Assembly: GCA_000004985.1 (NCBI GenBank)
Contig: GG738912.1
Strand: one strand, 5' to 3'
Origin: Naegleria gruberi
Taxonomy: Eukaryota
DNA length: 64,000 nt
This document shows positions 6,029 to 56,803 of this stretch, one piece after another. The position numbers and the translations under genes were made by a program. The notes beneath the pieces are model-generated. The model was given only the letters and a program-made list of their open reading frames with translations, ran no database searches and was not told the origin of the DNA. The first letter of the stretch is position 1. Each line of letters begins with the position of its first letter.

Positions 6029-7779
6029 TTATTGCGTTGGATCAAAGAATAAAACCAAATCCACTCGATTCTTGGGATTAGGGGAGGTGGTAAAAAGAGT
6101 ATCCTCAGAATCGTCAAATTTTCGAATCCATAATGCAAATTTTCGTAACGTTTCGCTGTCTACTTCTTGTATGTATATTTGCAATCGATCTTTGAACAGA
6201 CCTTTCTTTGTGCTCGTTAACTTTCGTTCTCTCTCACTTGGTAATAAGGTAAAATCGAATAGCTCATTATTAAATGTTATTGTTCTCGAATGGTTATCTT
6301 GGTTCTCTATGAATGACAGGTAAAATACGTTGGTATCCTTATATCTGGGACGCGAGGGATTATGTGGAAAGTGGATATCCACAAAACGTTGTTTAGCTAT
6401 TGGTGCAATATCCTTATGATGTACCAAGTTTTTCAATACTGTTTTTGTCAATTCCTTTCCATAATTCGTTCCACTATTTGGTTCATTCATCATGAAACAA
6501 GTTACAATAGCTCCGTGATATTGTTCATTTCTTTTAAACAATGCAGAGAGAATGTAAAATCTTGTTAAAATGTGAGAATTCTTCACAATGCTCAGAATAC
6601 AGTCATCGTCTCCAAAGTGTTTGGCCAATTCTATCAGCTTAAGCTTTGCTTCACAATCGGGTAGTGAACCATCAAGCAAATATTTTACATAGCTATTGAA
6701 TGTAGGCATTATAATAGGAGTTCTATCTTTGAAAGAGGAATTTCCAATATCAATAAAAACATTTGAATTTTTTTTGAGAATTGGGTGGTAATCTGTCAGT
6801 ATCTTTGAAAAGAACTTGGACCTTTTCAAATGCTTTACACATAAATTGTGATATTGATTTTCATAGCCAATCAAAAATTCTTTCTCTGGATCTAGAGTTT
6901 CATTCAGCTCTGAAATGATTTTGCCTTCAGGGAATTGTGCATGAGCAAAGTTCAACTCTGGTTCATCAAAAAAGAACTCTAAATCCACCGATCGATTTCT
7001 TGACTTGGAGAGCCAATAATTCGATGCTCCCAAATTCTGTTCCACTCCAACTCCTGTTAGATATTTAATTCCTACTTGTATCTGAGCTGCAACATCATCT
7101 CTCTTTGCTGCTTTCAAATACAACTCAAATGCTTTTTTGTAATCTTGTTTTACATGAATTCCAAATTCGTAAAATATTCCTAGGTTGTATATTGCATCCG
7201 AATCACCAATTCCAGCATACTCAGAATACCATTCAAACTCTTCACTAAAATCACGTTCCATTCCTTGAGAAAACATGAATAATCCAGAGGATTTAAAACG
7301 TCCAATTGCACTATTTGATTTTTCAAACCATTGCATAGCCATCATTACATTTTCCTTAACAACTTTTCCCTTCTCAAAGAAGGTTCCAATCTTGTATTTG
7401 GAAATTTCATCACCTTGTTCCGAGGCTTTCATATACCATTCCAATGCTTTTTCATAACTTTTCTGCACTCCCTTTCCTTCATCATACAACCATCCAATAT
7501 TAAACTGAGCATGAGCATCACCCTGTTCAGCAGCCTTCCAATACCACTCAAATGCTTTAACATAATCCTTTTCACTCCTCTTCCCTCCTCAAACAACAAT
7601 CCAACATTGTATTGAGCATCGGAATGTCCCTGCAAGGCTGCTTTCATATACCAATGCATTGCTAAGGCACAATCCTGCTTTACTCCATCAGAACCCTCAT
7701 CAAAACAAAGCCCCAAATTATATTGAGCATCAGCATCACCTTCCTCAGCTTGTTTAAGGTAAAGATCGAGCGCGGACAT
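6029..7779 (-). CDS. Sel1-repeat + BTB/POZ domain protein, interrupted by one frame break
   Basis: ORFs 7429-7779 and 6029-7489 both read as Sel1 repeats (…AEQGDADAQYNLGLCFDEG…, …GDAHAQFNIGWLYDEGKGVQKSYEKALEWY…). Adding one A/T to the T4 run at 7569-7572 restores GVKKDYVKAFEWYWKAAEQGD and joins them. The C-terminal third resembles the BTB region of the paralog at 10613-12228. Confidence 0.6.
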
Positions 7780-10612: not shown

Positions 10613-12228
10613 GGGAGGAATTTCATAACAGAGGAGAACACGCAAAAGGCTTTGATTGTTTTTGTAAAGGTTATGAAATACACAAATCCAGCGAGTTGGA
10701 GCATGCAATTGGTTGTTGTTATACATTCGGATTGGGAGTTGAAAAGGATTATTCTAAAGCAAGGGAATGGTATTTGAAAGCTGCTGAAAAGGGATTTGCA
10801 AATTCACAAAATAATCTTGGTATGATATATGAAAATGGATTAACTGTTGAAAAGGACTTGGCTGAAGCACTGGAATGGTATTTGAAAGCTGGTGAAAATG
10901 GTGATCTAACTGCTCAAGTAAATCTTGCTCGGCTCTACCGTGACGGTGAGGGAGTTGAACAAGATTATTTGAAATCATTCGAATGGAATATGAAAGCTGC
11001 TGAAGCTGGGGATGCAGAAGCTCAAGTTCACATTGGCTATGCATATGATAAGGGTCTAGGAGTTGAACAAGATTTTTCGAAATCATTCGAATGGAATTTG
11101 AAAGGAGCAGAAAATGGGAGCCTAGATGGTCAATTTAATGTTGGACTTTTATTGGAACTGGGGGATGGAGTTGAAAAAAACATCAAGAAATCTGTGTTTT
11201 GGAAATCAAAGTGTTTTAATAGGTCAAAATGTTTTGACTTTGTAGAAGAACCTTACGAGCAGTTTGCTATGCAATATTTTACATCAAATACTGAGGATTG
11301 GAATCAATCCTCACCAAATAGTGACAAAGAACACGTAGTCGTACGATTTGAAGAGAAGGATTTCACACTTTCACAAAAGCATTTAAAGCATTCAAAATAT
11401 TTATCAACCATGATGAATTCAAATTGGAAAGATTTCAATGTCAAAGAGAAAAACCGAACCATACTTGATTTGAGAACCATTCAAAATGATATATTTCAAG
11501 AACAAACAGATATCATTCAAATATTTAATAATTATGTGAACTACTTAACAAATGAAATATTACCACCAGATTTTGACATGAAATTGAAATTAATTGAACT
11601 GTCAAGATATTTACAAGATGACGGATGTATATTGAATATTGTCAAAGAAGCAAGTATTCTGCAGAGATTTTACATTCTTTTGATATTAGAAATTATTGTT
11701 GAACCTATTCACATTGCAATTACTAGTTGTTTTGCAGCAGAAACTAAATTTAAAATCAATGATCTCTCAGAAAATGTTATTGAAAAATTACTCACTCAGT
11801 CTGGCCTATCTCAACATGGAAAGGACGAGATTTATAATGTATTTAAAGAAAAATTCAATGGATATCCTATAGCAATCAGTAAGTTGATCTATATTCAATT
11901 CTAATTTTTCCAACTTAATTTAGATATGAATATTCTTCATGTAACATTTTCAACGCTTAAAGAGAAGAAACTAATTCATTTCAATCAAGAACAAGTCGAA
12001 TTTTCTTTGGAATTGGGTAAAGATATCGATAACACTATTTTCAATATCAACAGCTCGCATGATGTTCAATTCTTTGGAAAGAATGCCAAGTTATATATCC
12101 AGATATCGAGTAGTGTTGATGGAGTATATGGATTTTGGTTGGATAACAGTTCTGAAAAAGGAAAAACTATTTTCATTTTACCTGAGATTAACTTTGAGGC
12201 ACTTAACTTGATTATAATGACTACATAA
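10613..12228 (+). CDS. Sel1-repeat + BTB/POZ domain protein; multi-exon with the 5' exon not located
   Basis: Sel1 repeats (AEKGFANSQNNLGMIYENG…, GDAEAQVHIGYAYDKG…) are followed by a BTB-like block (EHVVVRFEEKDFTLSQKHLKHSKYLSTMMNS). The frame is open from a TTTTAG acceptor at 10612 with no in-frame ATG before it, so an upstream exon is implied. Intron 11879-11924 (GTAAGT..AATTTAG) joins ORF 10696-11904 to ORF 11926-12228. Confidence 0.55.
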
Positions 12229-12792: not shown

Positions 12793-15700
12793 TTACTTTT
12801 TATTGAGCAATGAAAGCGAGGATAAAAGGGCAACACCAGTTTTTCTTTCCTCTCCGTATTTGAATTGTCTAGTTACAAGGTTGAGTCGTTGATGGAATTG
12901 TGACTTGAGGACAGCTCGTTGTTTGGCAGTGAGGAATCTTCTTCCAATTGCTTGAATTGTTGTGGTAGATGATAAAGTTTGTTCAGAAAATTGAGTGGTC
13001 TGTTTTCTTGTAAAGGAACCTCGCAGCAAACCTTGGATAGTTTGTAAATTCTCATTCTTGATGCTTAATTCAACTCTCGTTCTTGATCCCTCAATTGCTG
13101 ATCGAATAGTGAACACCTTATCCGTTATACTCTTGAGTGATTTGGCTTGTTGAATTTGTCTGACTCGGGCTTGCAATAGCGAAATACTACTCAGAGCAAA
13201 TTCAAATTCATTCCTCTTATTGTGACACATAAAGAGAAGAGCGACAGTGTTAGATAACTCCTTCATATCAGTGAGACTCCCTCTCGTTTCATGACCATAA
13301 TACAAGCTCTGAAGATAGTTGGCAGAGTCAGAGACAGTTCTGAAATCTTCATTGACAAATCGTCCTCTAATAATACTCTGCAATGCGTTAATATATTGAA
13401 TGTTGGTATTAAGATCTCTGATTGCAATCTGTTGTTGCATGAGTGATTGAATGGATTCTGTGAGTATTTGCATTTTTTTGAATTCTTGTCTTGTTTGATT
13501 GGCTCTGTAGAGGGCAATGATCATATTTCTAGAATCGAGTAGAGAATCTCTGTCCTCATTAAAAGATCTTTTCACTAGGTTTGACCTGAAAAAGGTCTGA
13601 ATGACAATTAGTCCGCTCATTTTCATATCTCTTTGTTTGAGAGTTGTGAAAGTTCTCACCCTTGATTGAAAGATTTTCATATCTTTCTTTTTCTGATATG
13701 TTTTGAGAATGGTAGTCTTTCTTTCCAATAAGGATTGTAAAACAGTGGCCAGAGTGATAGACTTGCTAAAAGATCTTCTTGCAAGTTGCGATTTGAAGAG
13801 AGCTTGAATGATAGCAATATTTTCTCTGGTTTTTTCAATTCTTCTTTCTTCAGACATTCTATGGACAATAGATTGAATTGTTTTGATGGATTCGGTTGTG
13901 GTGGACGATTGTCTCCTGGTAGAAATTCCATGTAAGCGAGTTGTGACAATTTGAACTTTGGTCATAGAATTTGCATATTGTTTTCTAACTAGACTGGAAC
14001 TCATGAAGGTTGAAATTAAATCCATTTGAGAGGATATTCTTTCGAAAGTCTTCAATGCTAGTTGTTTTCTGCACAAGGACTGAATGTGAGTGAGAGAATT
14101 GATAACTTCTTCTCTACTGGTTCTCGCAGAATATCCTCTTGATGCAGCTTGGAGAGTACCAACACGTTGTAATTGATTTTCATGATTTTTCCTATCTGTA
14201 TTTCCTCTGGCAGCATTTTGAATTATAGTAATTGAATAGTATCTCCTTTCGTTTTGGTATTCTTGTTGAATTGAACGGCTTCTACAGACAGCTTGTAAAT
14301 TAAGAATATGCTTTTCGATACGTGATCTTGTGGAGAGTTGAATGAACCCCTTAGCAAATGATGTGAAAATCTGCAATCTCTCCTGTTCAAGGGTGGTTGC
14401 ATTTCTTTGACTTATGCCATTCCATAAAGATTGAAGTAAAATGACTTGATTGATAGAAGTAGCTTTTTCGTCTTTGGCTTGTTTTCTTCTTAATAGTGAT
14501 TGAAGAGCACTAACGTCTTGAATAGCTTCAGCATTTTCCCTACGTTTGTATTTACCTTGAAAAGCTGCTTGGATGGTGACTAAATCATGTTGAGCTCTTT
14601 CATAACCAGATCTCACAAGGACTCCTTTGGCAAGAGCATGTACATACTTGGTAAATGTTTGGAGTGCATGTATGTTTGATCTTTCCTTGTTTGCTCTCAC
14701 TAATGCTTGAATCATTTGAGTGGCATTCCTATCAATAGGAGAATAATTGTTCTTTTTAGATGATTTGTTTCTAATCAAAGCTTGCAAGACAATAATCTTG
14801 TTAAGGGTTTGATTTTTCAACATGTTGATATTTCTAGAATTAGCCAGTGCTTGTAGAGAAATTAAATCTGAAATGTGTTGCTTTCTGCTCTGTTCTTCAG
14901 CTTTTCTCCTTACCAATGCTTGCAATACTATGATACCAGAACAATCCATGTGAGTCGTGCTTCCTCTTAAAAAGGCTTGAATTATTGTTATATTTTCTAG
15001 TTGCTTTGATTCTATGTTTTGCATTGCAGAGGATCTACATCTAGCTTGTATTGCTAATACTGCATTCTTGGATATTTCAAACTCTGCTCTTGTAAATCTA
15101 TTTCTGATTAGTGACTGGATAATTTCAATATTGTTTAAGGAGTTTTTTACCAATAGTCTGGTCTTATTTCCTCTAAGGAAGGCACAAACCATTGAACTTG
15201 AACTAGTTTGTTTATCCAATTTCTTTTGTACTATTTTTGATCTTATTAATGATTCCAAAGTTTCCAATCTTTTCAAATCCAATTTCATCTTGGCAGCTTC
15301 AGATGATTTCCTAATAGTACTTTGAAGATTGGTAACAAATGCCATGCTGGTTTGAGCTAGTCTTCTTTCCATGCCTGATTGTATTAATGCATGAATAAGA
15401 TGAACACTCTCAATAGGGGATGCATGTTCAGTCCTTTCCTTGTGAGAAATTATTAAATTTTGTATCATGGAGACTGCTTCAAGTTGGTTAAGTTTGCTGG
15501 CAACTGTTGAGCTTGATCTAAAAGCAGATTGAATGGTAATAATTTGATTCTGCATGCGATTTCTACTAGTTCTTTCTGTATTACCTTGTAGCAAGGCATG
15601 CAATAGATTCACTCCACCTCTAATTTTTTGTTCATTAAACTTCCTGATAGTGGCTTGAGCAACAACCAACTTTTGAATATAAACCCTGCCATGGGAATTG

Positions 15701-18700
15701 TTCCTAACAATATGTCCTCTAATAAGAGCTTGCAAACTTGAAATTCGCTGCTTTTCACTCTCCAAACTAGCAGACACAAGGTTGGATCTTGCTGCTGATT
15801 GTATAATTTGAATTTGTTCCATCAATTTAAGCTTGACTTCTCTTTCTATGCATCCTTGGTTTAGTGTTTGAACAATTGTGGCAACATCTCTAAAAGCAGA
15901 CATTTGGAGCTTTTCAACCAGAGATTTTCCAAGTGATTGAAAGGTCAAAATAGCATCTTTTTGTCTACCATCGTTGACCCTTGTAAAGTGGCCAACTACA
16001 GCGCTTTGTATTATCTTGGTATTTCTGATTGCCTTCTCGGTTTCCCTACATTTCAAGAATCTCCTGACCAAAGATTGCATTATTTCCACCAAGTCCCTTG
16101 TTAAGTAAAAGGTTTGCCTTAATGATCTACCTTTAAAAAAAGATGCAAGGGTATTACTATCCTCAAAACGGTTCCTTACCAGAGCTGACTGTAACAAGGT
16201 TGAAATAATATCTATTTTGGACTTTTCTTGTTCCGCTAATCGCCTTGTGTTGAATGACCTAGCACTCAATGAAAGGATAGAAATCATGTCCAAATGAGCT
16301 TGTTTGCTTGTCATTACATGTTTTCCTCTGATTGCACTCTGAATTACAAGCACTTTGGTTAATTGATACATGTCCACATGGTTATTTCCACGTCCTCTGA
16401 AGAAGGCCTGAATATTAGTGATACTATCATGTACATGTGAAAAATTCTTCCTTTCCAAATATCCTCTAATGAGAGCTTGCTGAGTGTTGATGTGGTTTTT
16501 GGTAGGTTGTAGATTTTTTCTCTCATCTCTTCCTCTCATGCTAGATTGCAAATTGATGATGTAAATTGTGTACTGTTCATGTTGTGCACGTAGCGTGTGA
16601 GAAAGAATGAGAGATTGTAAAATCTTGATGTTGTTGATGCATGTTTCCGATTGTTTTCTATTGATGTATGCTCTTCCGAATGTTTCAACTAAAAGAGAAG
16701 AGTCAATCAAGTCCTGATGTTCCTTCAACTTTGCATGTCCTCTTACCACAGCTTGAACATATTTGGTGTTGTTTGAAAGGGTTGAAAGGTGAGCCTTTTC
16801 CAATTTGCTTCTTATACGAGCTTGTAAAGTTTTGATCTTGTTCAATTCATTGATGAAATCTCCTCTACAGAAAGAGGATTGTAAAAAACCTTGTACGATT
16901 TGAACATTTTCTACATTTTCAATAAATTTGTTCTCTGTCAATTGTCTTCGGGAAAGTGATTGAATAACAGTAACATATTCATTAACACTGCTTTCTATTT
17001 TCCTGGCTATAAAACCACGTACCGAAGCTTGAAGAGTCAAAATGTTATAGTGGTTATGTCTAAAGGATTTGATTTCATTCTTTTTACGAATGTTGGATTG
17101 CACCAACAATACGTTATTCATTTGTTTCTCTTGTTCTTGAGTTATTAAAAAGGTCTTGACTCTTGCCTGAAGAGTTATTATTAAACTCTTATTTTGTGAA
17201 AATTCCTTTCGTGCAAAGTTTCCAAATAAAACAGATTGGGTATTCACTAAATCTTCTCTTCTGGCAGATAAATCTTTTCTTGTGAGATAAGATCTAGCTG
17301 CAGTTTGAATCATTCTCAAGTTCGCAACACTGTTTCTAAACAAGCATCTTGTTTCGAATGTCCTTAAAAGTGCCTGAGTAAAACAGATTCTAATTAGTTC
17401 ATTCTTATGCTCCAAACGTTGCACATGACCTTTCATGAGAGAACCTAATATATTTGAGCTTTCAGTTGTGTGTTTAACAAGTTGATTTTCAATTTTTCCT
17501 TGATATAATGTTTGAATTTGATGGGCCAAATTAATTTTAACTTGAAAACCACGTCTAGTCTGTACGCCTCGCAGCCATGATTGTATAGTCGAAACCTTTC
17601 GTTGAGTTTGGTGCATCAATGAACGGTTTAGCTTCCCTGAGAAAGACGCTTGAATACTATTGATGGCATTAATTCGATGCTTCAAATCAATTCTTCCCAA
17701 ATGTCCCTTGATTGAATGCTGTAAAGTTTGAACAGCATTTTGCAAGGAATGCTTATTTACTTGCTCCAATGTGCCTCTTGCTCTTGACTGAATTAGATGG
17801 GCAGCATTTCTCGTATCATAAAATTTCATCTGTCCACTGTGGCCACGAGCCAAAGAGGTCAAGAGAAGTGCCTTATCTAAATCCGTGCAAGCTTGCGAAG
17901 CGGTATTAATGCTCCTTAATAGAGTTTGAAGAAGCAACACACCCTTTTTAAGATCTGTATATTCCTTCCTTCTTGCGACAGCGTCAATTAAAGTTTGTAG
18001 GACAAGCACGTCCGATTTATACCTTTGGACTACCTTTTGTTGTTCTAGTCCACGACCATTGGCTTGAAGAAGGGAAGCAACTTGCACATATTGAGATAGG
18101 TCCTTTCTTACAAATAAAGATCTTGAAACAGGTTGAACAAGGATAGCAACGTGTTTCTTCTTTTTAAAGTCTAGGAATACCTTTCTTGCACAACAAACAG
18201 ATTGAATTAAAGTGGATGCATTCAACGCTGAATCTTTGAATTTCTGAATCAATTTGGCTCTTATAAGCGATTGTACAAGTGTAATTCTATTACATTGTTC
18301 TTTAAAGGTTGTACGAGCATTGAAACCCCTGATTGCACTATCCATAATCAAACATTTTGAATTCAAAGATTTTCTGTTTCGGTATTCGATAAATCTTCTG
18401 GAAAGCGTTTGAATGGTAGTAATGTCATTGATTAGATGGTTCAAATTGGATTGGCATTGCTTGACCCTTATCAAGGTCTGTATTGCTTGGATATTAGAAA
18501 TTTCCTTAGAGGAGTCTTGTTTCAAAAGTATTCTCCTGATCAATGCCTGAAGTAATGGAATGGATTCACTAGTGGTTTGATATTTCTTTCTCTGATTGCA
18601 TCCTAGTATCGTAGATTGAATTACTTTGATATTTTCCATAGAAAGAGTAAAGCATTTAGCTTGTTGTCCAGCTCTGAATAATCCTTGGATTACTACAGCA

Positions 18701-21700
18701 GAGTCCAAACTTGTTGTGAGATTAGTTCTTTCCAATCTTCCAACTAATGCTGCATTGAATAGATGAGCCAAATTTCGGAGCAATTGCAGGTTTTTCCTAC
18801 TAACATTAGAAGACATCATAGCTTGCAAAACCTCAATTGAGGAGGAGAAGATTACCATTTCCTGCCTGTCAGAAGAACCCTTGATGGATGCTTGCAGAGT
18901 GAGTAAAAAATTCTCCAATTGGCTCACTTCCTTCATTGCTGCTCTTCCTCTAACAAGACTTTGAAGCAATATTATCCTACTTGTCAAAACCGAACGAGAA
19001 TGTTTAACTGATAATGCCTTGGAAAGAGCTGTAAATATTTCGGATCTATCCAATTCGAATCTATAAATTTGTCCTTCTCCTTTGCCTCTGCAAAAGCTTT
19101 GCATTATCTGTATGGCTTCCTTCTTCGATTGTAAATCTTTTTGCTTATGATGTCTCCTTACAAGTGACTGTAAAGTAATGATTTGTTGAATATTGTGTCT
19201 TGTGAAGGAGACTAATAATCTAGACCTTGAAATAGACTGAAGAATTACAATTTGTTGAATATTCTTTGCAAAACAACCTCTTTCAAGTTTTGATCTGGAG
19301 AGCGATTGAATACATTCCAAGTTCAACTTGTTAGAATTGAAATCTTCTTGTTGGTATCTTCTTCTGTGCCAAGTTTGAACGGTGAGAGCAGTAACCCTCA
19401 TCAGATTGAATGTCTCTCTGATTCTATTAGACTCGCACAACACTGCAATGTTTGAAAGGGCTTGAGTCCTGAACACCTCAAAGGCAAAGAGTGAACAAAC
19501 TCTAATTAACTCTGCATCCTCGACAAGTCTTTGGTCTTCCATGATTTCGTCCTCCTCTCCAAAATAAGGTCTCATTCTCGGTATTTCACAATTGTCAGGA
19601 TAGCAATCATAATTAAATCTAACTACAGCCTCCATGAACTCGATAATGAAAAGTGGAATATACTTGAAATCAAGTGGGAATAGCCGTATTTCGTTCAAGT
19701 ATGGGAAGAGTTGTACTTGAACCCATATCAACAAAAGGGGAACCGTAGATTTTGCATCTTCTTCTACCACCTCATCTACCTTTTTGCTTGTTGTCGAATA
19801 GTAATGTTCATTCATTTTGGTGAGAACGGATTTAAGTTTTTCTCCATCATAGTGAACCAGTAGAGCTTCGTGGAAAATGTGTGAGAGAGGGTGTTCATCT
19901 CCAATTTTCATCAATGACTTGTAATTTTCCACATACTTTTCTGCATCTTCGATTGATATCTTTTCAGAAATCAAGTCAACTATACCTCTAACATTATCAC
20001 CTCTAGGATCTAATTTTTCAATTTCCTTTCTCAAAATTGCTGGGGTTAGTTTGGATTTAATCTTATCCAAAGAAGTAGGTTCCTCTGGGAATTGTATTCC
20101 TTCTTCATCTGAAATTTTTTCAATTTCCGATTGGTCTGATGATGACTCTCTGCCATGTCTCTTCAGTGGAGGTTCTTCATAATTTGCCAGAGATTCTAAG
20201 GATGTAACCTTAGCCATATCAGTGGATGTTGGTGTTGAAGGAGTTTTTGCCTTTTTGGCAAACTTGTTGAAAAAACTTTTGATTTTTTCACTTTTTGTCT
20301 TTTTTCTTTCTAATAGTTGACTACTTGTCAATGCTATTTGCGTATTACTATATGTTGATTCATCATCATCAAGTGTATCCAAACTCTGTCCTACAGAACG
20401 GCTGAAATTATTGTTTCTTGCTGGTGCTGATGCAACAGAAAATGCAGTGAAATTACTGTGAGAAGAAATTGTATCAAAAAGATCATCCCTTTCCACAGAT
20501 CCCTTCCCATCCATTAGACTGATTTTAAATGATTTGGATATATTCATGGCTTGAGATCTTCTGACTGGACTCTTTGGAGTTGTTGAGCCAGAAGCTTTTT
20601 CAGCCAGCTCTGAAAAATTGACACCCTTTCTTCTTTTCTGAGACAAATCTTTGTGTACTCCATTAAATTCTGTCAACTTGACTAGAACTTCACTCACCTC
20701 ACTATTAACATGAGAATGGGTTGTGGTTGTACTTATTTGAGAGGCAAAGGTGTGAGTATATTGTGAATATTGAGATTCTTCTGGTGATACAGGTGTTGCT
20801 GTTTCCTTCTTTTTTCTTTTTAATTTTGTAATTATGGAAGGCAACTTTCCTAGTAGAGATTTTGATCTTCCTTTCGTGGTTTCCTTTGTTATTGGAACTA
20901 CTATAGAGGGAACAACAACTAGAGGTCCTTGAAAATTATTGTTTGCTGATGCTGATGTATTACTGGTACCAGTATGATTAGGTGTATTTCCACTAGAAAT
21001 ATCCGATGTATTCATATCATCAAAATCATTGTCAGATTCATTCTCCTCTCCTTGCATATCATTCTCTGTAATATCATCAAATGATGCTCCATACACTCTA
21101 TTGCCATGTTGAACATTTTGAGTTGATGGTGTAATGCTGGATGCACTTGGTGGTGGTGAGGGTCTTCCTCTTGGTGAAAATTCATTCCTTGGAGAACGAC
21201 CATTTGGCATGATTGACCTAGGTGATAATAAGTTACCTCCTCTCGGAGTGTATAAATTGTGAGCTAGTGAATGTGATCGATGTGTACGACCACCACTCTT
21301 GGATGAAGATGTTGTAGATGCAAGTGAACTCTTATTTGAATTATTTCTAAATCTACCAACAGGTCTATTCTGTACAGGTGGTTTACTAATTACTATGGCT
21401 ACAGGTGTGGAGGAATTAATTGATGGTGAATTATCGCTATTATTGTTGGTTTGTTTACTCGATGTTACTAAATTATTCGAATAGATTATTACTCCTCCTC
21501 CATTAGTTGAAGAAGTACTTGTTCCATTCTGATTATTAGGTATTTGTCTATAGAAGGAAGAAGATGAATGTAGGGATGTATTGCTATTATTGTTACTATT
21601 ATTGAAAAGGGATGCTGGATTGGAATTTTGAATGGCAGAAAGTTTTAACTGGGGAATGACAGCAGGTACTCTTTTCGAGGAAGTAGAAGAGAAGGTAGAT

Positions 21701-22275
21701 GCATTAGGTGGAGTGGATGGAGAAATTGGTGAAAAGGTCGTGTTATTACTTCCCTGAAGATGATGAAGATTTGAGGCAAAATTGGGACTTGATGACTGAG
21801 AACGATGTCTTGGTGATAATGTCGATGATGAAGACAATGAATTGGCAAGTGATAAATTAGAAGAACCCACATTCCGTAAAACTGAAGAAGCCGAAAGTAT
21901 TCCTCCTCCTACTCCTCCTGGTGAATTCGAGTTATCCAAACATTGACTATTACCTATCGATAATTGACCTCCATTATTATTATTATTACTAATAATATTA
22001 TTATTAATCGAAGCAGCAATCAATCCTCCAATATTATTATTATTATTATCCATAATACTATTATTTAAATTAATTGTTCCTTGTTGTTGCACACTTGTCG
22101 GCGATGATACAACAACAGATGCAGATGCACCTCCTCCTCCTCCCTGAGCAGACGAAGAAATACTTCCATTGAAAAGAACATTTTGTGCAGCTGCTGATGA
22201 TGATAAATTGGCGGCGGGAAGTAAATCTTGATGGAGGCGGGAAGTGATTTTTTCGGGATTTATCGAATTTCCCAT
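12793..22275 (-). CDS. giant IQ-motif array protein (3160 aa), ASPM/Asp-like architecture without recognisable CH or motor domain
   Basis: Uninterrupted 9.5-kb ORF. The N-terminal ~700 aa are S/N/G-rich and disordered. A ~250-aa globular region follows (…LLIWVQVQLFPYLNEIRLFPLDFKYIPLF…). Then ~2100 aa consist of degenerate repeats with ~23–27-aa period matching the IQ consensus [IVL]Qxx[IVL]RGxxxR (e.g. IQSLVRRHH, IQALIRGHIVR, LQSLVRGRAAMK), running to the C-terminus. Confidence 0.75.
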   Translation of the reverse strand: MGNSINPEKITSRLHQDLLPAANLSSSAAAQNVLFNGSISSSAQGGGGGASASVVVSSPTSVQQQGTINLNNSIMDNNNNNIGGLIAASINNNIISNNNNNGGQLSIGNSQCLDNSNSPGGVGGGILSASSVLRNVGSSNLSLANSLSSSSTLSPRHRSQSSSPNFASNLHHLQGSNNTTFSPISPSTPPNASTFSSTSSKRVPAVIPQLKLSAIQNSNPASLFNNSNNNSNTSLHSSSSFYRQIPNNQNGTSTSSTNGGGVIIYSNNLVTSSKQTNNNSDNSPSINSSTPVAIVISKPPVQNRPVGRFRNNSNKSSLASTTSSSKSGGRTHRSHSLAHNLYTPRGGNLLSPRSIMPNGRSPRNEFSPRGRPSPPPSASSITPSTQNVQHGNRVYGASFDDITENDMQGEENESDNDFDDMNTSDISSGNTPNHTGTSNTSASANNNFQGPLVVVPSIVVPITKETTKGRSKSLLGKLPSIITKLKRKKKETATPVSPEESQYSQYTHTFASQISTTTTHSHVNSEVSEVLVKLTEFNGVHKDLSQKRRKGVNFSELAEKASGSTTPKSPVRRSQAMNISKSFKISLMDGKGSVERDDLFDTISSHSNFTAFSVASAPARNNNFSRSVGQSLDTLDDDESTYSNTQIALTSSQLLERKKTKSEKIKSFFNKFAKKAKTPSTPTSTDMAKVTSLESLANYEEPPLKRHGRESSSDQSEIEKISDEEGIQFPEEPTSLDKIKSKLTPAILRKEIEKLDPRGDNVRGIVDLISEKISIEDAEKYVENYKSLMKIGDEHPLSHIFHEALLVHYDGEKLKSVLTKMNEHYYSTTSKKVDEVVEEDAKSTVPLLLIWVQVQLFPYLNEIRLFPLDFKYIPLFIIEFMEAVVRFNYDCYPDNCEIPRMRPYFGEEDEIMEDQRLVEDAELIRVCSLFAFEVFRTQALSNIAVLCESNRIRETFNLMRVTALTVQTWHRRRYQQEDFNSNKLNLECIQSLSRSKLERGCFAKNIQQIVILQSISRSRLLVSFTRHNIQQIITLQSLVRRHHKQKDLQSKKEAIQIMQSFCRGKGEGQIYRFELDRSEIFTALSKALSVKHSRSVLTSRIILLQSLVRGRAAMKEVSQLENFLLTLQASIKGSSDRQEMVIFSSSIEVLQAMMSSNVSRKNLQLLRNLAHLFNAALVGRLERTNLTTSLDSAVVIQGLFRAGQQAKCFTLSMENIKVIQSTILGCNQRKKYQTTSESIPLLQALIRRILLKQDSSKEISNIQAIQTLIRVKQCQSNLNHLINDITTIQTLSRRFIEYRNRKSLNSKCLIMDSAIRGFNARTTFKEQCNRITLVQSLIRAKLIQKFKDSALNASTLIQSVCCARKVFLDFKKKKHVAILVQPVSRSLFVRKDLSQYVQVASLLQANGRGLEQQKVVQRYKSDVLVLQTLIDAVARRKEYTDLKKGVLLLQTLLRSINTASQACTDLDKALLLTSLARGHSGQMKFYDTRNAAHLIQSRARGTLEQVNKHSLQNAVQTLQHSIKGHLGRIDLKHRINAINSIQASFSGKLNRSLMHQTQRKVSTIQSWLRGVQTRRGFQVKINLAHQIQTLYQGKIENQLVKHTTESSNILGSLMKGHVQRLEHKNELIRICFTQALLRTFETRCLFRNSVANLRMIQTAARSYLTRKDLSARREDLVNTQSVLFGNFARKEFSQNKSLIITLQARVKTFLITQEQEKQMNNVLLVQSNIRKKNEIKSFRHNHYNILTLQASVRGFIARKIESSVNEYVTVIQSLSRRQLTENKFIENVENVQIVQGFLQSSFCRGDFINELNKIKTLQARIRSKLEKAHLSTLSNNTKYVQAVVRGHAKLKEHQDLIDSSLLVETFGRAYINRKQSETCINNIKILQSLILSHTLRAQHEQYTIYIINLQSSMRGRDERKNLQPTKNHINTQQALIRGYLERKNFSHVHDSITNIQAFFRGRGNNHVDMYQLTKVLVIQSAIRGKHVMTSKQAHLDMISILSLSARSFNTRRLAEQEKSKIDIISTLLQSALVRNRFEDSNTLASFFKGRSLRQTFYLTRDLVEIMQSLVRRFLKCRETEKAIRNTKIIQSAVVGHFTRVNDGRQKDAILTFQSLGKSLVEKLQMSAFRDVATIVQTLNQGCIEREVKLKLMEQIQIIQSAARSNLVSASLESEKQRISSLQALIRGHIVRNNSHGRVYIQKLVVAQATIRKFNEQKIRGGVNLLHALLQGNTERTSRNRMQNQIITIQSAFRSSSTVASKLNQLEAVSMIQNLIISHKERTEHASPIESVHLIHALIQSGMERRLAQTSMAFVTNLQSTIRKSSEAAKMKLDLKRLETLESLIRSKIVQKKLDKQTSSSSMVCAFLRGNKTRLLVKNSLNNIEIIQSLIRNRFTRAEFEISKNAVLAIQARCRSSAMQNIESKQLENITIIQAFLRGSTTHMDCSGIIVLQALVRRKAEEQSRKQHISDLISLQALANSRNINMLKNQTLNKIIVLQALIRNKSSKKNNYSPIDRNATQMIQALVRANKERSNIHALQTFTKYVHALAKGVLVRSGYERAQHDLVTIQAAFQGKYKRRENAEAIQDVSALQSLLRRKQAKDEKATSINQVILLQSLWNGISQRNATTLEQERLQIFTSFAKGFIQLSTRSRIEKHILNLQAVCRSRSIQQEYQNERRYYSITIIQNAARGNTDRKNHENQLQRVGTLQAASRGYSARTSREEVINSLTHIQSLCRKQLALKTFERISSQMDLISTFMSSSLVRKQYANSMTKVQIVTTRLHGISTRRQSSTTTESIKTIQSIVHRMSEERRIEKTRENIAIIQALFKSQLARRSFSKSITLATVLQSLLERKTTILKTYQKKKDMKIFQSRVRTFTTLKQRDMKMSGLIVIQTFFRSNLVKRSFNEDRDSLLDSRNMIIALYRANQTRQEFKKMQILTESIQSLMQQQIAIRDLNTNIQYINALQSIIRGRFVNEDFRTVSDSANYLQSLYYGHETRGSLTDMKELSNTVALLFMCHNKRNEFEFALSSISLLQARVRQIQQAKSLKSITDKVFTIRSAIEGSRTRVELSIKNENLQTIQGLLRGSFTRKQTTQFSEQTLSSTTTIQAIGRRFLTAKQRAVLKSQFHQRLNLVTRQFKYGEERKTGVALLSSLSLLNKK

Positions 22276-22709: not shown

Positions 22710-23821
22710 TTTGATTCGAAATTTGGAATTAAACCTGATAATATTACACTCACAACAATTCTTCTGTCCTGTGCTGAACATCATGATATTGGAAAGGGTC
22801 ATACCCGACTACATCAAGGAGAATAGACTTGTTGGTGATGTCTCATAAACTTTTACTCTAAATGTACTGATTTAGAGACTGCTCTCTCAATTTTCGAATC
22901 AATTATTAAGAAAAAGAAGGAAGTGAACTCATACACGTACAATGCTATTATTTTTGCATGTGCAGAGCATGGGCAGTCAAGCCATTGCTTTAAATTCTTC
23001 ACTCAAATGATACAGAGCAATATTGAGTTATTGCCAACACCAGAAACATTCACAGCTTTGCTTACTGCTTGTAGCCATTCTCATATGTACGATAAAGCCT
23101 GGGATATCTACAATTCTATGGGAACAAGTTTCGGTATTGAACCAAGTAATATTCATACATCTTGTTTGATTGATGCACTAGCGAGATCTGGGCAATTTGT
23201 GAAAGCTCTTGAAATAATTGGAAAACGCAAAGATAAAGTATATTGGATGACTCTGATGGGAGCATGTAGAAAATTCAACCATGTTGAGATAGCAGAGAAG
23301 GCTTTTGATGCATTGATTGACATTGATTCAACAGATGGTTCATATTATGTTTTATTATCCCATATTTATATATTCAACAATCAAATGGAAAAGGCAGCAA
23401 CAATAAGATTTAATGAAATATAATAATGGCTCAAAAGTTGTTGGAGTCACTTCTGTGATACATTGGCGACGAGATTCACACCCAGTGATGACAGATAAGC
23501 ATCTCATTCAAGTCGAGCTTGATAAATTGATTAATGAACTAATGGAGGCAGGTTATTCTCCAGATACTAGATGGGTTACCAGAATAGAAACTTTGAGCAC
23601 TGAAGAAAAACGAAACCTTTTATGTAGGCATTCTGAAAAGATTGCCATGGCGTATGCTTTTGTCAGAATGCCAAAAACTAAACAAATAGTCTTATTCCAA
23701 AACCTGACTGCCATGAAGCAACAAAGTACATTTCCAAAGTGAGAAAATGATTGTTGTGAGAGATGCAAGTCGATACTACCATATTAAGGACGGAAAATGT
23801 AGCTGTGGTGATAATTGGTAA
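22710..23821 (+). pseudogene. truncated PPR–E–DYW (plant-type organellar RNA-editing factor) gene with several frame disruptions
   Basis: Conceptual translation across three frames gives …FGIKPDNITLTTILLSCAEHHDIGKG / VIPDYIKENRLVGDV / INFYSKCTDLETALSIFESI…YTYNAIIFACAEHGQ…TFTALLTACSHSHMYDKAWDIY…CLIDALARSGQ…, a PPR/E motif series. It continues …SHP…HSEKIAMAYAFV…NL.CHEATKYISKVRKMIVVRDASRYYHIKDGKCSCGDNW*, a DYW deaminase domain that has HxE but lacks the first Cys of CxDCH. There is no N-terminal PPR array and no in-frame start. Confidence 0.5.
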
Positions 23822-24852
23822 TAACTGTACTAATTTCACTTACAATAATTCAGTCTTACCAATTTATCAAACATCAAATAATAATATCGTATCAAATGAA
23901 AACAACTAGAGATTCTTTCCTGTTAGAATCAAATAAGTATCTGGACTTGAAGTACAAATCCAAACACACTCCATTATAATATCATCACTGTTGTTCCTCC
24001 GAGTGAATCGGACTACTCAGAGACTAATCTCTCTATCTCTCAATCATCTAGAGGCTTATCGACATTACATAACAGACTTGTTTGATAGTATGTCGGAGAA
24101 GGTATTCGTTCAAGTTGTTTTAATAACAAATCTGATATTATAACAATATCTCTTTGCAACCCAAAAAGTTAAGGTATATGATCCAGTCTAGACAGAATAC
24201 TTTCCTTATTTACCTTTGGACATGTTGAGATAAAACGAAGACATAATATTGAGATTGGTCCTTGGAGGATGGCCTTAATAATTTATAGGTTCTGCGAAGT
24301 TATGTATTGGTCCCTTAAGCTTGCAGTGGGGAAGAGAATGTAGGAAAAGTCGAATACAAAAACATCATGACAAATAGTAATCAAATCATGGTGTTGAGAA
24401 TTGTAAATACTAATATGAATTTACATGATTTATCAATATCAAATATTGGATTCTTGATCCACAAGTGTTGCTTAATATCATCTCTAATACCCTATTAGAG
24501 CATTAATTTTAAACCGCCAATAGTTCCATTGTCCAAAACCAAACCACATCCTTAATTTGGCTAGCATATCCGAAAATCCAAATTCAGAACGTATTGCTTA
24601 TGGCGCATATGCTTGCGTCAATCGAATCAGCAGCATGAAGCTCAACTTTGCAGATGATGGATCTGCTAAGAGGACAAGACCTAAACAAACTCAAAAAAAA
24701 CCAACAACACAACAATCACAACATTAAGCAGAAGAGGAATAAGAACTCTTTCTTTAGTAGTACTACTCTCTGACAAGCACTGCAAGACCGCATATAATAT
24801 TTGGTGGTTCGATTTCTTCTTTTTTAAAAGCTCTCACAGAAAGTGAACTGGA

Positions 24853-27742
24853 TTGGATCACAATAATATTATACAATATATTATAATATTCAAGAATAAT
24901 TATACTATGAATCATCCTGCACCCAATAATAGTGATATCATCAACTATGCAAATGGGCATCCTCATCGTCATAACCAACAACAACAGCAGCAACAAGATA
25001 CTCAACACTTTTATTCAAAATCCTATCCAACTTCCTTTAATAATGAAATTGGAAACATCAACAGAAGTGAAGGGGTGAGAGAACCACTCAACCCTGTTTG
25101 GAATAATACTCAACCATATCAGAACCCAAATAAGAGTGCAGCCTCCATGCTCATGTTTCCTCATGATGATGACAGAAGTCCTCTAACCTATTCATTAATA
25201 TCTTCACCTGCCAACAATACTACAAATACAACAACACCATGTACATCTTCTCACAACCGTAATGCTAACAATACCACTAGTTCAAGTATACCACAAGCAT
25301 CAACAGAGAGATCCTCATGTACTAACTACATGTATCCAACGTCCTCAAACAACAACTCAAACATCCAACAACAATATCCTCAAAGGAAACAATCTTCTCC
25401 ACCACCTCACTATCCAATCAGAAATAATAATCAATCTGTACATGATGTGGCGCCTTCACCCATACAGCGTAATACACCTTCTTCAAATGGCTCAACCATA
25501 AACAGTCAATTGCTCCATGACTGTCGGGGTGTACAAATTAATAATTATGATATACCTAGTTCGAATTGTCAAAGAGAGGATGGAAAATCATTCATCCAAC
25601 AACCTGATCAGCTTGTCCAAACAAAACAAGAATTCAAAACAAACATAACCATCAGTAGCAGCTCGGATATTGATTTTCCCAACAATATGAATAATACCAA
25701 TAGAGTTTCGACTGATCATCATCAGCCTACATGTATTATTAATAATAATAATTATAATAATAATAATAATATGAACGAATTCAATAACACTAGAAGAACA
25801 ACATCATCATCAACATATGGTTATAATAATAATAATTCTACGACATTAGACCAGAATATGTTTAATAATTCCTCTTCACCACCTCCTTCTTCCATGTTGC
25901 AATATTATAACTCACAACAACATCATAACAACAACAATAACTCTGTATCAAATATTCCTAATCAGAAGAGAATTTCTCCAACTGTAAATTATGAATCTTC
26001 TTCGACTGGTAGGATTGTTGATGAATCAGCATCATATCATAATGGTAGTAGAGCAACAACAAGCTTACCACAACAACAGCATGCAGCAACATCCTCACAT
26101 GACAATACACATGTACTACCTTATTATAATGCACATCCTTCTAGACATGCATCGCCTACATCCACCACCTATCAATACTCCCCACATCAGCAGCACCAAC
26201 AACAACATGTACAACAATCACCTAGAAGTTTGCCAACTGATCAGCCGAGAGAATATCCTTCTTCTTATTCTGATCCAGTGGTGAGTAATTCTTCTCAACC
26301 ACCACAGTATCAGCCATCATTACAGAAAGATAATAGATCGTTGGATCCTTCTTATTCAGCTAATGGATATCACTCGCAACAGCAGTATCAATTAACAACA
26401 CAAATAATACTACTAGCAGCAATCATACTAGATCAAATTTAAGTGCTAATTTCCATTCCTCAACTGATTTTTCATTTAGTGGAAGAAATGCAAGTCATAG
26501 TGGATCCTCTGATGATAATTCTGATTCAAAACTGAATCATGGAGGAGCTTTGAATGGTGATTCTAGAAAACACAAGAAGAAAGGTCCAAAGAAGAGAGAA
26601 ATTTCAAGAGATGATATGAAAAAGTATTTCCATGTTTCTCAAACAGTTGCTGCTAAAATGTTAGGAGTTTCAGTTAGTACTCTTAAAAGAAGGTAAGTTG
26701 TCTTCTCGAAGAAAATCATCTAATTCTTGTATTTATCATGTTTGCTCTCATGTACATTGATTGCATAATACTTAATGTAAATGTATTAATTATCAATATT
26801 ATGTTGATGCATCTTACATCCAATGCATGTATCTGAATTTAAATTATATCGGATGAACCAATTCGCTTTTTGCTGATTCCTCCCTTAATGCATTTAACAT
26901 TGGTATTTACCGTAAAAAAACTTACTTTCATATTTGGACTTTAAGATTTTATGAGGAGTTTAACATGAAATGGCCATATGTGCCTTCAAAAACCAATACT
27001 TCAAAGAGAAAGAAGGATGACAATGGGGAGACAACATTGGGAAGTGGTGATAATAGTCAACAAAACTCAGATGAGCATGCTTCATCACATGAGATGGTAC
27101 TTCCTCATCAACAACAGCAACTGCAACCACCATCCTCATTCGATTCACCTTATAAGAAATTGAAGAGAGATGTTATCTTTGATCCACCAAATAATGTAGT
27201 TAGCGAGCAAAATCATCTTTCTGCAACATTCACATACTTCTTATCAAAATAATGTTCAGAATGCACCACCACCTCAATATTCTCAAATGAATGATAGAAA
27301 TTCATCCACACATGGATCCATGCATGCCTATCCAACATCCATTAATGTAAATAATAATCATATAGAAAATGGATCAACTAGTTTACATATCAGAAATGAG
27401 AATGTTTCAAATGTAGCTCCAACAAGACATGCTCAAGTGGTTTCTTATCAACATGCTGAACCTTATCCTCCTTCCTCTTCTGCTACCATTCGAAACAATA
27501 TCAATAACAGTACATCTACCTCACTCATGTCTTATCATGCTCCACAACAAACAATGAACCATGCCAATCATGGTATCATACATTCTAATTCACCTCCTGG
27601 TTACATGATGAGAGGAGAAGATGTTTATTCATCAGCTGCAACTACATCTCAATCACAACATTTTGAAGCAGCTACAGTTTCTGGACCAACTACCAATATG
27701 TTACCTCCTATTTCCTCTTTTAAAATGGAATCTTGGAAGTAA
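24853..27742 (+). CDS. N/Q/S-rich RWP-RK domain protein; at least 3 exons
   Basis: A long low-complexity ORF shifts frame by one base near 26380-26400 into SANFHSS…KKREISRDDMKKYFHVSQTVAAKMLGVSVSTLKRR (RWP-RK N-terminal half). The GTAAGT donor at 26693, intron 26693-26945 and acceptor TTTAAG give R-FYEEFNMKWPYVPSK (the RWPxRK position reads MKWPY). A second intron 27196-27259 (GTAGTT..TTCAG) joins to ORF 27287-27742. Confidence 0.55.
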
Positions 27743-28392
27743 TTAATACACCCAATTGTTTAATTGTTTGACATGTTACATATGCCATGTCACTTTGGAA
27801 CCTGATCGTTTTTTGCAAACAATAAAAGGATCTTTGTTATCCAAAATTATACTCAAGGTGCATTGTTTAATAAGGAAATCATCAGATATTAAATAGTTCA
27901 CTGTTTCAAACGACATTTTCCTTTCGTCAGATATGCATTTTTTAGTGTGGATGATTTACTATTTGCAATTTATTTACAATGAAATTGAGGAGGAGCAGTA
28001 ATTAGAATAGTCAATTCCTAATACCGCTCCATATATGTGAATTATGAAACAAGTGACATGATAGCAGCTGATTAATTGCAGGAATGGGTTTAATTGTATA
28101 AATGTTAAATACGTAAACATCTTCACCCGTTGAATACCTTCAAGTATACAATTACATTGAAGCCACTTTTACAATTAAATACCTAGATAAAGACAATGAT
28201 TTAAGATTGGATGTAAACAATCTCCAATATATATTCAAAATATCGATCAGTGTTGCTGCTCAATAACAACTTCCAAAGCGTGAAATTTGAATCAGATCAA
28301 CAACTTATATTTTGAGGGTTGGTCTGGGAATCGAATTGCAATAAAAAATTTGAAAGACCAGAGAATAAATACATTGATATAACAGCCAAGAA

Positions 28393-28444
28393 GCGCGATG
28401 GGCTCATAACCCATAGGTCCTAGGATCGAAACCTAGATTTGCTA
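28393..28444 (+). pseudogene. tRNA-Met(CAT)-like 3' fragment (anticodon arm, T arm, acceptor 3' strand); 5' part missing
   Basis: AGCGCG-ATGGG-CTCATAA-CCCAT-AGGTC-CTAGG-ATCGAAA-CCTAG-ATTTGCT-A folds as D-stem 3' strand, anticodon stem-loop (CAT), variable loop, T arm and 3' acceptor. Nothing upstream pairs with ATTTGCT. Confidence 0.4.
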
Positions 28445-28553
28445 ATCGTTTTACAATTTTGGAATTGAAAATGTTTAAAATATTTAAATCTATTAATAAA
28501 TTTAGTGAACTAAGGTAAGAAAACCTTATCTATCCAATACATTTAAAAGGAAA

Positions 28554-28625
28554 GGGGACCAGTGGGAATCGAACCCACGGCCTCTCGCACCCAAAGCGAG
28601 AATCATACCACTAGACCATGGTCCC
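28554..28625 (-). tRNA. tRNA-Pro (anticodon TGG)
   Basis: Reverse complement GGGACCATGGTCTAGTGGTATGATTCTCGCTTTGGGTGCGAGAGGCCGTGGGTTCGATTCCCACTGGTCCCC is a canonical cloverleaf with loop TTTGGGT; near-identical to eukaryotic tRNA-Pro-UGG; a T-run follows. Confidence 0.85.
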
Positions 28626-28733
28626 TTACACTATTATTTGCTTAAGACATAGATCCCAATAGTTTGTTGTGTTTTCTCGAATAATTTGTAGGCACTGTTT
28701 GTTTAAGCAAGTTAAAATTTTGAAAAGAATAAC

Positions 28734-28739
28734 AAAAAA
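28734..28739 (-). terminator. Pol III oligo-T terminator of the 5S gene
   Basis: TTTTTT immediately 3' of the 5S rRNA on the minus strand. Confidence 0.6.
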
Positions 28740-28857
28740 GACTACAGCACCACAGGTTCCCAAGTTGTCTCCAACCTCAGTATTGATGTGGCTCGACGAT
28801 GCTTAACTTCTCAAATCGGACGGGATGAGGTGCATTCATCGTGATATGGCCGTAGCC
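28740..28857 (-). rRNA. 5S ribosomal RNA
   Basis: Reverse complement GGCTACGGCCATATCACGATGAATGCACCTCATCCCGTCCGATTTGAGAAGTTAAGCATCGTCGAGCC…GGTTGGAGACAACTTGGGAACCTGTGGTGCTGTAGTC has the helix I pairing and the conserved CCCGTCCGAT / GAAGTTAAGC / GGGAGAC-like blocks; followed by T6. Confidence 0.85.
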
Positions 28858-29045: not shown

Positions 29046-29663
29046 ATGATGAACAACCAAACAAACGAAACAGTAGAACAAGCAAATGAATTAAAGTACG
29101 AATTAAACTCTGTTGTTGAACGTTTAGATCAAGTGGTCATGGCTTGGAGCAGTAAAATGACCAAACGCGAGAATGATTTTCAAGAATTACAAAAACTTTC
29201 AACAAAATTCACATTCAAAGAAGGTGAAATTATCAAACTAAACATTAGTGGAATCGTTTTCAAGGTTTTTAAGGAAACTTTGGATCAGAAAATTGTAAAA
29301 CCTAAACCTACAACAATTAAATTTACAAATAGTAGACTTAGAAATGAACAAAGTATGGAACAGTCAACGGAGGAAGTTCAATATTATCCACCTAACTTTT
29401 TCAATGTACTCATGTCTGGAATTCACAATTTATCGATGGATAAGGATACAAATGCGATATTTATTAATAGAGATCCAACTCATTTTCATTGCATTCTCAA
29501 TTATTTGAGAGGTCAAGGACATTCGAAAGATTTCGTTCTTCCAAAAGATTCGTATGCTCTCGAATGTTTGTTTATCGAAGCAAGATTTTACATGTTGGAA
29601 GGTTTGATGGAAATTATTGAGAGAATTTCTCCAAATATTAAACAAAATTATTGCAGAGATTAG
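29046..29663 (+). CDS. BTB/POZ (KCTD / K-channel-tetramerisation T1-type) domain protein (205 aa)
   Basis: N-terminal coiled coil, then EGEIIKLNISGIVFKVFKETL…INRDPTHFHCILNYLRGQGHSKDFVLPKDSYALECLFIEARFYMLEGL, the T1/BTB signature. Confidence 0.65.
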   Translation: MMNNQTNETVEQANELKYELNSVVERLDQVVMAWSSKMTKRENDFQELQKLSTKFTFKEGEIIKLNISGIVFKVFKETLDQKIVKPKPTTIKFTNSRLRNEQSMEQSTEEVQYYPPNFFNVLMSGIHNLSMDKDTNAIFINRDPTHFHCILNYLRGQGHSKDFVLPKDSYALECLFIEARFYMLEGLMEIIERISPNIKQNYCRD

Positions 29664-56729: not shown

Positions 56730-56803
56730 TACCGACAATGGGGCTCGAACCCACGACCCCAGGATTAGAAGTCCTGTGCTCTATCCAACTGAGCTATGAC
56801 GGC
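56730..56803 (-). tRNA. tRNA-Arg (anticodon TCT)
   Basis: Reverse complement GCCGTCATAGCTCAGTTGGATAGAGCACAGGACTTCTAATCCTGGGGTCGTGGGTTCGAGCCCCATTGTCGGTA folds as a cloverleaf (loop CTTCTAA; one U·U and one G·U in the acceptor stem); a T-run follows downstream. Confidence 0.75.

Follow-up and report, generated by a model that had tools for sequence, protein, structure and literature searches.

Older accounts restricted the RWP-RK family to plants, green algae and slime moulds; stramenopiles were added later, and fungi and metazoans are described as lacking it (PMC7399023). Herman et al. 2021 (PMC8296547 Table S3) count 39 RWP-RK genes in N. gruberi and 26-27 in the strains of N. fowleri; in Naegleria this is the third most numerous DNA-binding domain, or transcription-factor family. 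Residues 812-861 of the N. fowleri orthologue of the gene studied here are listed there as its domain, KKREISRQDMEKYFHVSQSVAAKLLGVSVSTLKRRFYEEFNMKWPYVPTK. Here we describe the corresponding locus in N. gruberi NEG-M, located in a 64-kb stretch of contig GG738912.1 that is hereafter called the window. The gene lies on the plus strand and runs from an ATG at 24907 to a TAA stop at 27740-27742, over four coding segments, see Table 1. It is orthologous to a gene that N. fowleri, N. lovaniensis and Willaertia magna have in common. Quite probably it encodes a transcription factor, has in truth two exons and a product of about 860 residues, and is interrupted in the reference sequence by two single-base breaks.

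The closest described proteins are both annotated as "RWP-RK domain-containing protein": C9374_007989 of N. lovaniensis (XP_044546103, 1160 residues, 87% domain identity by phmmer) and FDP41_010994 of N. fowleri (XP_044567729; Nfowleri986_g4131; 1220 residues, 80% domain identity by phmmer). An orthologue is also present in Willaertia magna (KAL9646103, 77% domain identity by phmmer). The first half of the domain and the basic arm in front of it are 87-90% identical to the orthologues. With the two Naegleria proteins the locus shares a near-identical domain string, KKGPKKREISR.DM.KYFHVSQ.VAAK.LGVSVSTLKRRFYEEFNMKWPYVP, and the string FYEEFNMKWPYVP is identical in both of them. Further, all three have a long low-complexity N-terminus that starts from M(K)NH (MNHP... 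in N. gruberi, resembling the MKNH... of the orthologues) and the motif LPPISS 9-10 residues from the C-terminus. With N. fowleri there is also an intron of the same position and phase in common.

However, a few differences can be observed. The N. gruberi protein has about 860 residues against 1160-1220 in N. fowleri and N. lovaniensis, and its shorter flanks cannot be aligned outside the motifs. There are two frame breaks in the N. gruberi reference, and the public N. gruberi model is without the domain. The traits of the orthologue group around FDP41_010994 are all found in N. gruberi (KKGPKKREIS, FYEEFNMKWPY, a phase-2 intron after LKR and the C-terminal LPPISS), with one exception: the uninterrupted frame on either side of the single intron is seen in N. 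fowleri but not in the window.

When the exon that ends at 26692 is joined to the one that starts at 26946, the spliced peptide matches the Pfam profile PF02042 (RWP-RK) with 39.2 bits (E 6.5e-10, profile positions 2-43 of 49), to be compared with a gathering cutoff of 29.3 bits. The first half of the domain alone reaches 37.3 bits. Against a profile built from the homologues, the two exon translations match columns 11-55 and 55-84; the halves therefore abut, and no residues are missing. The domain retains all residues that are invariant in the family. Judged from its sequence, the locus is a genuine RWP-RK-domain gene, a member of a known expanded family. In agreement with this, a preliminary description of the window had proposed an RWP-RK domain with low complexity on both sides of it. 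No other Pfam domain was found in the flanks (E<=10, 495-residue N-terminal and 160-residue C-terminal parts), and the homologue-built profile revealed neither a second RWP-RK copy nor a tandem paralogue in the window.

The domain is divided by a spliceosomal intron of 253 nucleotides (nt), which splits the codon of the second Arg in LKRR (AG/A). In genomic DNA of N. fowleri (L005) a 201-nt intron, GTATGT...CAG, occupies the identical codon position and phase. The same is true for a 52-nt intron, GTAAGT...AG, in a metagenomic relative (L001), where the exons are conserved and the intron has diverged. In more distant homologues LKRRFYE is uninterrupted. The length is exactly the one given in the preliminary description. 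The abutting profile halves and the introns at the same position in N. fowleri and L001 show that this intron is real.

The sole public N. gruberi protein at the locus, EFC37964.1 (XP_002670708.1, D2VYT4, NAEGRDRAFT_53335), is a "predicted protein" of 511 residues. It corresponds exactly to the first frame and ends at 26440, without the RWP-RK domain. A search with the RWP-RK domain as query returned no N. gruberi protein, and therefore the gene must have escaped any count based on scanning the annotated proteome for domains. Five open reading frames (ORFs) of the window are exact matches to the N. gruberi proteins EFC38009, EFC37962, EFC38011, EFC37965 and EFC38016, which assigns the window to this heterolobosean amoeboflagellate and not to a fungus or an amoebozoan. 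What is new at this locus is a public model that is cut before the DNA-binding domain, together with two unexplained frame breaks. It is either the fortieth RWP-RK gene of N. gruberi or a fresh pseudogene.

The domain is not reached in one open frame. The preliminary description had read about 550 residues of low complexity ahead of it, but the about 565 residues upstream of ISRDD do not form a single frame: the ORF that begins at 24907 comes to an end at 26440, and the domain exon lies in a different frame, which opens no earlier than 26364. This first break (J1) had been overlooked. As the domain exon has no usable ATG, it must join the 511-codon frame, which needs a change of frame within 26364-26440. 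The likeliest switch point is 26383-26392 (CAG CAG TAT CAA/TTA...), and the break acts as a missing base. The second break (J3), which had been read as an intron, has its likeliest switch point at about 27215-27230 and acts as one extra base. The last frame of 178 codons belongs to the gene, because N. lovaniensis and N. fowleri also have its LPPISS, 9-10 residues before the C-terminus.

To score coding potential we used codon log-odds, trained on the unambiguous parts of the RWP-RK gene versus non-ORF DNA of the window. At about 26380-26390, and again at about 27215-27225, the coding signal moves straight on into the downstream frame, with no non-coding gap in between. Inside the stretches that could be introns, the downstream frame scores 0.29-0.55 at J1 and 0.69-0.85 at J3 (from 27224), while the 95th percentile of non-coding DNA is 0.25 and the 99th percentile 0.53. 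In the true 253-nt intron the log-odds are negative in all frames.

Further, N. fowleri is contiguous in both regions: one ORF (P0017) leads from the start to the domain intron and another (P0150) from the domain intron to the stop. The annotated model of N. lovaniensis and two metagenomic relatives likewise show no interruption upstream of the domain. The direct passage from frame to frame, and the fact that N. fowleri reads through both regions, therefore point to 1-nt frameshifts rather than introns; J1 and J3 look like single-base indels in a continuous coding sequence. Repair of both breaks results in a two-exon gene of 860 residues.

Our best guess is that the breaks are consensus errors in low-complexity sequence. 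The true gene would then have one conserved intron, within helix 3 of the domain, and two exons as in N. fowleri. The breaks near 26385 and 27220 would have caused the public annotation to end at 511 residues, ahead of the DNA-binding domain.

Alternatively, the breaks may be real mutations, so that in NEG-M the gene is a pseudogene or an allele inactivated not long ago, whose sole product is the low-complexity protein of 511 residues without the DNA-binding domain. The given sequence can indeed not be translated through. Decay is also plausible in this region, as the adjacent PPR-DYW gene has at least three breaks in conserved domains that are not explicable by introns, and for Naegleria GTPase genes a published supplement gives manually corrected models and has a column headed "putative pseudogene?". 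However, the four segments are still long open frames of 511, 110, 101 and 178 codons in 34% GC DNA (G+C is about 34% across the whole window), and the family-invariant residues of the domain, the splice sites and the C-terminal LPPISS are all intact; any inactivation must therefore be very recent. As the orthologue group is, in addition, conserved from Naegleria to Willaertia, we regard a pseudogene as unlikely.

The breaks could also be explained by two extra short introns specific to N. gruberi, which would give four exons and a protein of 819 residues, in essence the preliminary model with one intron added. Both candidates (Table 1) are of GT-AG type, restore the frame and have a plausible length; elsewhere in the window there are candidate introns of 44-46 nt, found as donor-selected ORF joins, and a CTTAT element 20 nt ahead of the J3 candidate acceptor is also present in the L001 intron. 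However, when read in the downstream frame both candidates look coding, with scores beyond the 95th-99th percentile of non-coding DNA, N. fowleri is without an intron at either site, and the contiguity of N. lovaniensis and the two metagenomic relatives upstream of the domain argues in the same direction. The donors are also unlike the GTAAGTT of the confirmed intron and of three other short candidates, although this is a weak point since that set was selected for strong donors. Taken together, the four-exon structure is decidedly improbable. Of the two introns in the preliminary description, the 253-nt one stands, while the second (about 27196-27259) is probably a frameshift, given its coding score and the uninterrupted P0150.

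Two other solutions were tried for J1 and rejected. A micro-intron of 32-35 nt fits the frame, but has only about 10 nt from the donor to any branch site. With GTGAGT at 26281 as donor, acceptors are found only in the A-rich stretch of the basic arm, and about 100 coding residues are lost.

Searches across the breaks gave little. Word-indexed protein searches returned no read-through or spliced N. gruberi product, and one metagenome scan at the Joint Genome Institute (JGI) returned only distant relatives at 54-69% identity. In the European Nucleotide Archive (ENA) metagenome ERZ929261, with a strain 98.5-98.9% identical to the window, the contigs do not cover the RWP-RK gene. Literature searches for a Naegleria splice-site consensus and for the gene identifiers found nothing usable.

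The N. gruberi protein carries a motif that differs from the name of the family. The literal R-W-P-x-R-K signature is absent; the protein reads M-K-W-P-Y-V-P-S-K, where W-P alone is kept. The preliminary description had rightly read M-K-W-P-Y and noted that the canonical RWPxRK is missing, but the variant core motif is not a peculiarity of the gene. An exhaustive phmmer search against 1.84 billion representatives gave 139 hits. In the aligned domains of the nearest homologues [RK]WPY is found in 71 of 124, with RWPY in 53 and KWPY in 18, followed by RWPS in 11. Among 136 extracted homologue domains, 96 contain LKRR[FY] and 3 the literal RWPxRK. As RWPxRK is missing from most of the nearest homologues, the literal motif is not required for membership in the profile. 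The orthologues of N. fowleri, N. lovaniensis and Willaertia all have the same KWPY string. The prevalence of [RK]WPY and the identical strings of the orthologues therefore make the "variant motif" a subfamily hallmark; as far as can be read from the sequences, KWPY is typical of a whole branch and not peculiar to the N. gruberi gene.

The remaining possibility, an unusual RWP-RK gene of a family atypical of its lineage, with a degenerate core motif that alters DNA binding, can draw on the missing RWPxRK and on the narrow family range in older literature (PMC7399023), but is scarcely credible: among the transcription-factor families of the host only two outnumber RWP-RK (PMC8296547), [RK]WPY dominates over RWPxRK in the homologues, and the orthologues share the exact same motif. 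The earlier framing of the gene as lineage-informative, in relation to amoebozoa and Dikarya, is likewise not tenable: the host belongs to Heterolobosea (Discoba), and N. gruberi has 39 catalogued genes of the family.

The branch is here treated as an operational group, heterolobosean LKRRFYE-[RK]WPY, which we define by the recognition helix GVSVSTLKRRFYE followed by [RK]WPY. The N. gruberi protein falls within it, and the named members are proteins of Naegleria and Willaertia. More distant LKRRFYE-[RK]WPY homologues were seen on two eukaryotic contigs, L002 (P0004) and L003 (P0001). Products of neighbouring genes on these contigs match IQUB and Leu_zip PF15294, families that we take to be linked to cilia or flagella. 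This would suggest that the branch is wider than Naegleria and Willaertia and exists in other flagellated protists. An N. fowleri RWP-RK gene that is up-regulated after mouse passage (V212_g4821) was also considered; it is a different paralogue and reads ISRWPYRR.

In general there is a resemblance between the N. gruberi protein and the RWP-RK proteins of plants and algae (NIN/NLP, RKD, Chlamydomonas MID and NIT2). Common to both are a PF02042 match above threshold, the core of the helix-turn-helix (HTH), AAK.LGVS.T.LKR, and an invariant Trp-Pro that follows helix 3. However, the N. gruberi protein is without RWPxRK: K replaces R, Tyr stands after Pro, and there is no RK. The helix 3 consensus in plants is LKR.CR, while it is LKRRFYE here. 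Further, neither a PB1 domain of NLP type nor a GAF-like nitrate-response region was detected by Pfam in the N- or C-terminal parts, and the protein thus lacks the marks of the NLP subfamily (C-terminal PB1, N-terminal GAF-like region).

AlphaFold2 predicts three helices, with a predicted local distance difference test (pLDDT) score of 87-90 in the core: helix 1 (RDDMKK), helix 2 (QTVAAKML) and helix 3 (VSTLKRRFYEEF), followed by a loop that contains KWPY. The domain of about 60 residues is thus predicted to fold as a three-helix HTH. From what is generally known of HTH proteins, helix 3 would be the DNA-recognition helix, placed in the major groove, and by analogy the invariant Trp-Pro past it may cap and pack this helix. 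The basic arm KKKGPKKRE and the patches SKRKK and KKLKR could contact the DNA backbone or be used for nuclear import, and the long disordered N/Q/S/T-rich flanks may be activation or interaction regions.

When the predicted fold was compared with the PDB using Foldseek, the best matches were HTH domains of a sigma-54 activator, NtrC and Fis (2m8g, 4l5e, 1etq). The predicted three-helix arrangement is similar to that of the Fis/NtrC type (HTH_8, sigma-54 activators), and two homologues have been auto-named "NtrC family response regulator" by JGI. At the sequence level the likeness is weak, with HTH_8 E-values of 0.004-0.036, below every HTH_8 threshold, and an E-value of 0.66 for the NtrC profile. 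In contrast to these proteins, the N. gruberi protein is eukaryotic, has no AAA+ or receiver domain, and carries a Trp-Pro extension that is specific to RWP-RK. The resemblance is one of working principle only, and not of membership.

A number of points weigh against the picture of a conserved HTH factor whose two exons are broken by consensus errors. Two such errors within 2.8 kb of a Sanger assembly would be an unusually high number, and the frame breaks in the adjacent DYW gene could indicate real decay of the stretch. The codon model learned from a single low-complexity gene, and the windows on which it was tested had 10-19 codons. The AlphaFold2 prediction is based on a shallow alignment of 6 sequences, the Foldseek matches are not significant (best E 0.24), and sequence and profile searches found no RWP-RK structure in the PDB.

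Table 1. Features of the RWP-RK locus and RNA genes in the window.
Feature	Position	Strand	Description
First coding segment	24907-26442	+	ATG 24907, stop TAA 26440-26442, 511 codons, N/Q/S/T-rich low complexity
Frame break J1	26364-26440	+	upstream frame closes 26440, domain frame opens 26364
J1 candidate intron	26385-26443	+	59 nt, GTATCA...TTTAAG
Second coding segment, domain frame	open from 26364 to GTAAGT at 26693	+	reads ...HKKKGPKKREISRDDMKKYFHVSQTVAAKMLGVSVSTLKR
Basic arm	26571-26600	+	HKKKGPKKRE, conserved
RWP-RK domain, first half	26601-26692	+	ISRDDMKKYFHVSQTVAAKMLGVSVSTLKR(R), predicted helices 1 and 2, beginning of putative recognition helix 3
Spliceosomal intron	26693-26945	+	253 nt, GT-AG, GTAAGTTG...CTTTAAG, phase 2, inside recognition helix
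Third coding segment	26946-27250	+	domain second half (R)FYEEFNMKWPYVPSK at 26946-26991, then low complexity; stop at 27250
M-K-W-P-Y motif	26965-26979	+	KWPY 26968-26979, third coding segment
Basic patch SKRKK	27001-27015	+	third coding segment
Basic patch KKLKR	27154-27168	+	third coding segment
J3 candidate intron	27196-27259	+	64 nt, GTAGTT...GTTCAG; second intron of the preliminary description
Frame break J3	27206-27250	+	last frame opens 27206, preceding frame closes 27250
Last coding segment	27206-27742	+	low-complexity C-terminal region, 178 codons, ends ...NMLPPISSFKMESWK and stop
LPPISS motif	27701-27718	+	conserved, last coding segment
Weak tRNA-like match	28384-28444	+	32.9 bits, no ARAGORN call
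tRNA-Pro(TGG)	28554-28625	-	
5S rRNA	28739-28857	-	100.9 bits
tRNA-Arg(TCT)	56730-56803	-	

Just upstream of the RWP-RK gene, at 22839-23830 on the plus strand, there is a pentatricopeptide repeat (PPR) gene that combines an E motif with a DYW deaminase domain, as do RNA-editing factors of plant type. Its E/DYW part is spread over at least three frames, with DYW profile positions 1-52, about 53-67 and 68-93 each in a different one and a merged score of 99.7 bits, and the C-x-D-C-H zinc motif seems to lack its first Cys. The breaks in the DYW domain cannot be explained by introns; either the gene is a pseudogene or the assembly is poor here. For the plus strand only two protein accessions exist between the matched genes on either side, and one of them is the 511-residue model. 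The PPR-DYW gene may lack annotation, as it and a Sel1-repeat ORF would compete for the other accession.

Downstream of the RWP-RK stop, at a distance of 0.6-1.1 kb, lies a cluster of small RNA genes (28384-28857). Further downstream, a 5.1-kb contig (L011) of the N. gruberi-like strain in ERZ929261 / ERR1078381 matches the window only from 29316 onward, with a breakpoint within a BTB gene (29046-29663). The upstream part of the contig (L011:1-2684) contains an unrelated 695-codon ORF without a Pfam match. Structural variation, different haplotypes or a chimera in the contig would account for this divergence.

Elsewhere in the window, the minus strand contains one uninterrupted ORF of 3160 codons (12793-22275), with IQ calmodulin-binding motifs as its sole Pfam match. 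Its exact sequence is not in the protein collection, and therefore the public model must differ. Three large ORFs of 714, 417 and 483 codons are adjacent on the minus strand at 54191-49227. Should they form a single gene, a 59-nt candidate intron (52099-52041) with the donor GTAAAT is available at the first junction, and donors weaker than GTAAGT may then be used in this genome. Two ORFs for Sel1-repeat proteins lie close together (6029-7489, minus strand; 10696-11904, plus strand), and a divergent G-alpha-like ORF at 1721-3172 on the minus strand scores 49.5 bits against a Pfam cutoff of 48.8.

For the family, the locus means that the public N. gruberi proteome undercounts RWP-RK genes by at least one. 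D2VYT4 needs either a new model, as an RWP-RK factor of about 860 residues, or a flag that marks it as a frameshifted pseudogene. Further, what looks like a "variant core motif" in a single gene can be the rule within a lineage-specific branch. In the literature found, no member of this branch has been characterised for DNA binding or biology. The heterolobosean branch (LKRRFYE...[RK]WPY) as a whole is a reasonable target, while the single locus adds little and its practical value is small.

For the organism, it is conceivable, if quite unlikely, that the breaks are real and that the long-cultured axenic clone NEG-M carries a very recently disabled copy of an RWP-RK regulator that is kept elsewhere in Naegleria and in Willaertia. 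In algae and plants, mating type and gamete programmes are governed by RWP-RK factors, and to our knowledge sex has never been observed in Naegleria. If true, the loss of such a regulator in a laboratory strain could mark a developmental programme that NEG-M no longer runs.

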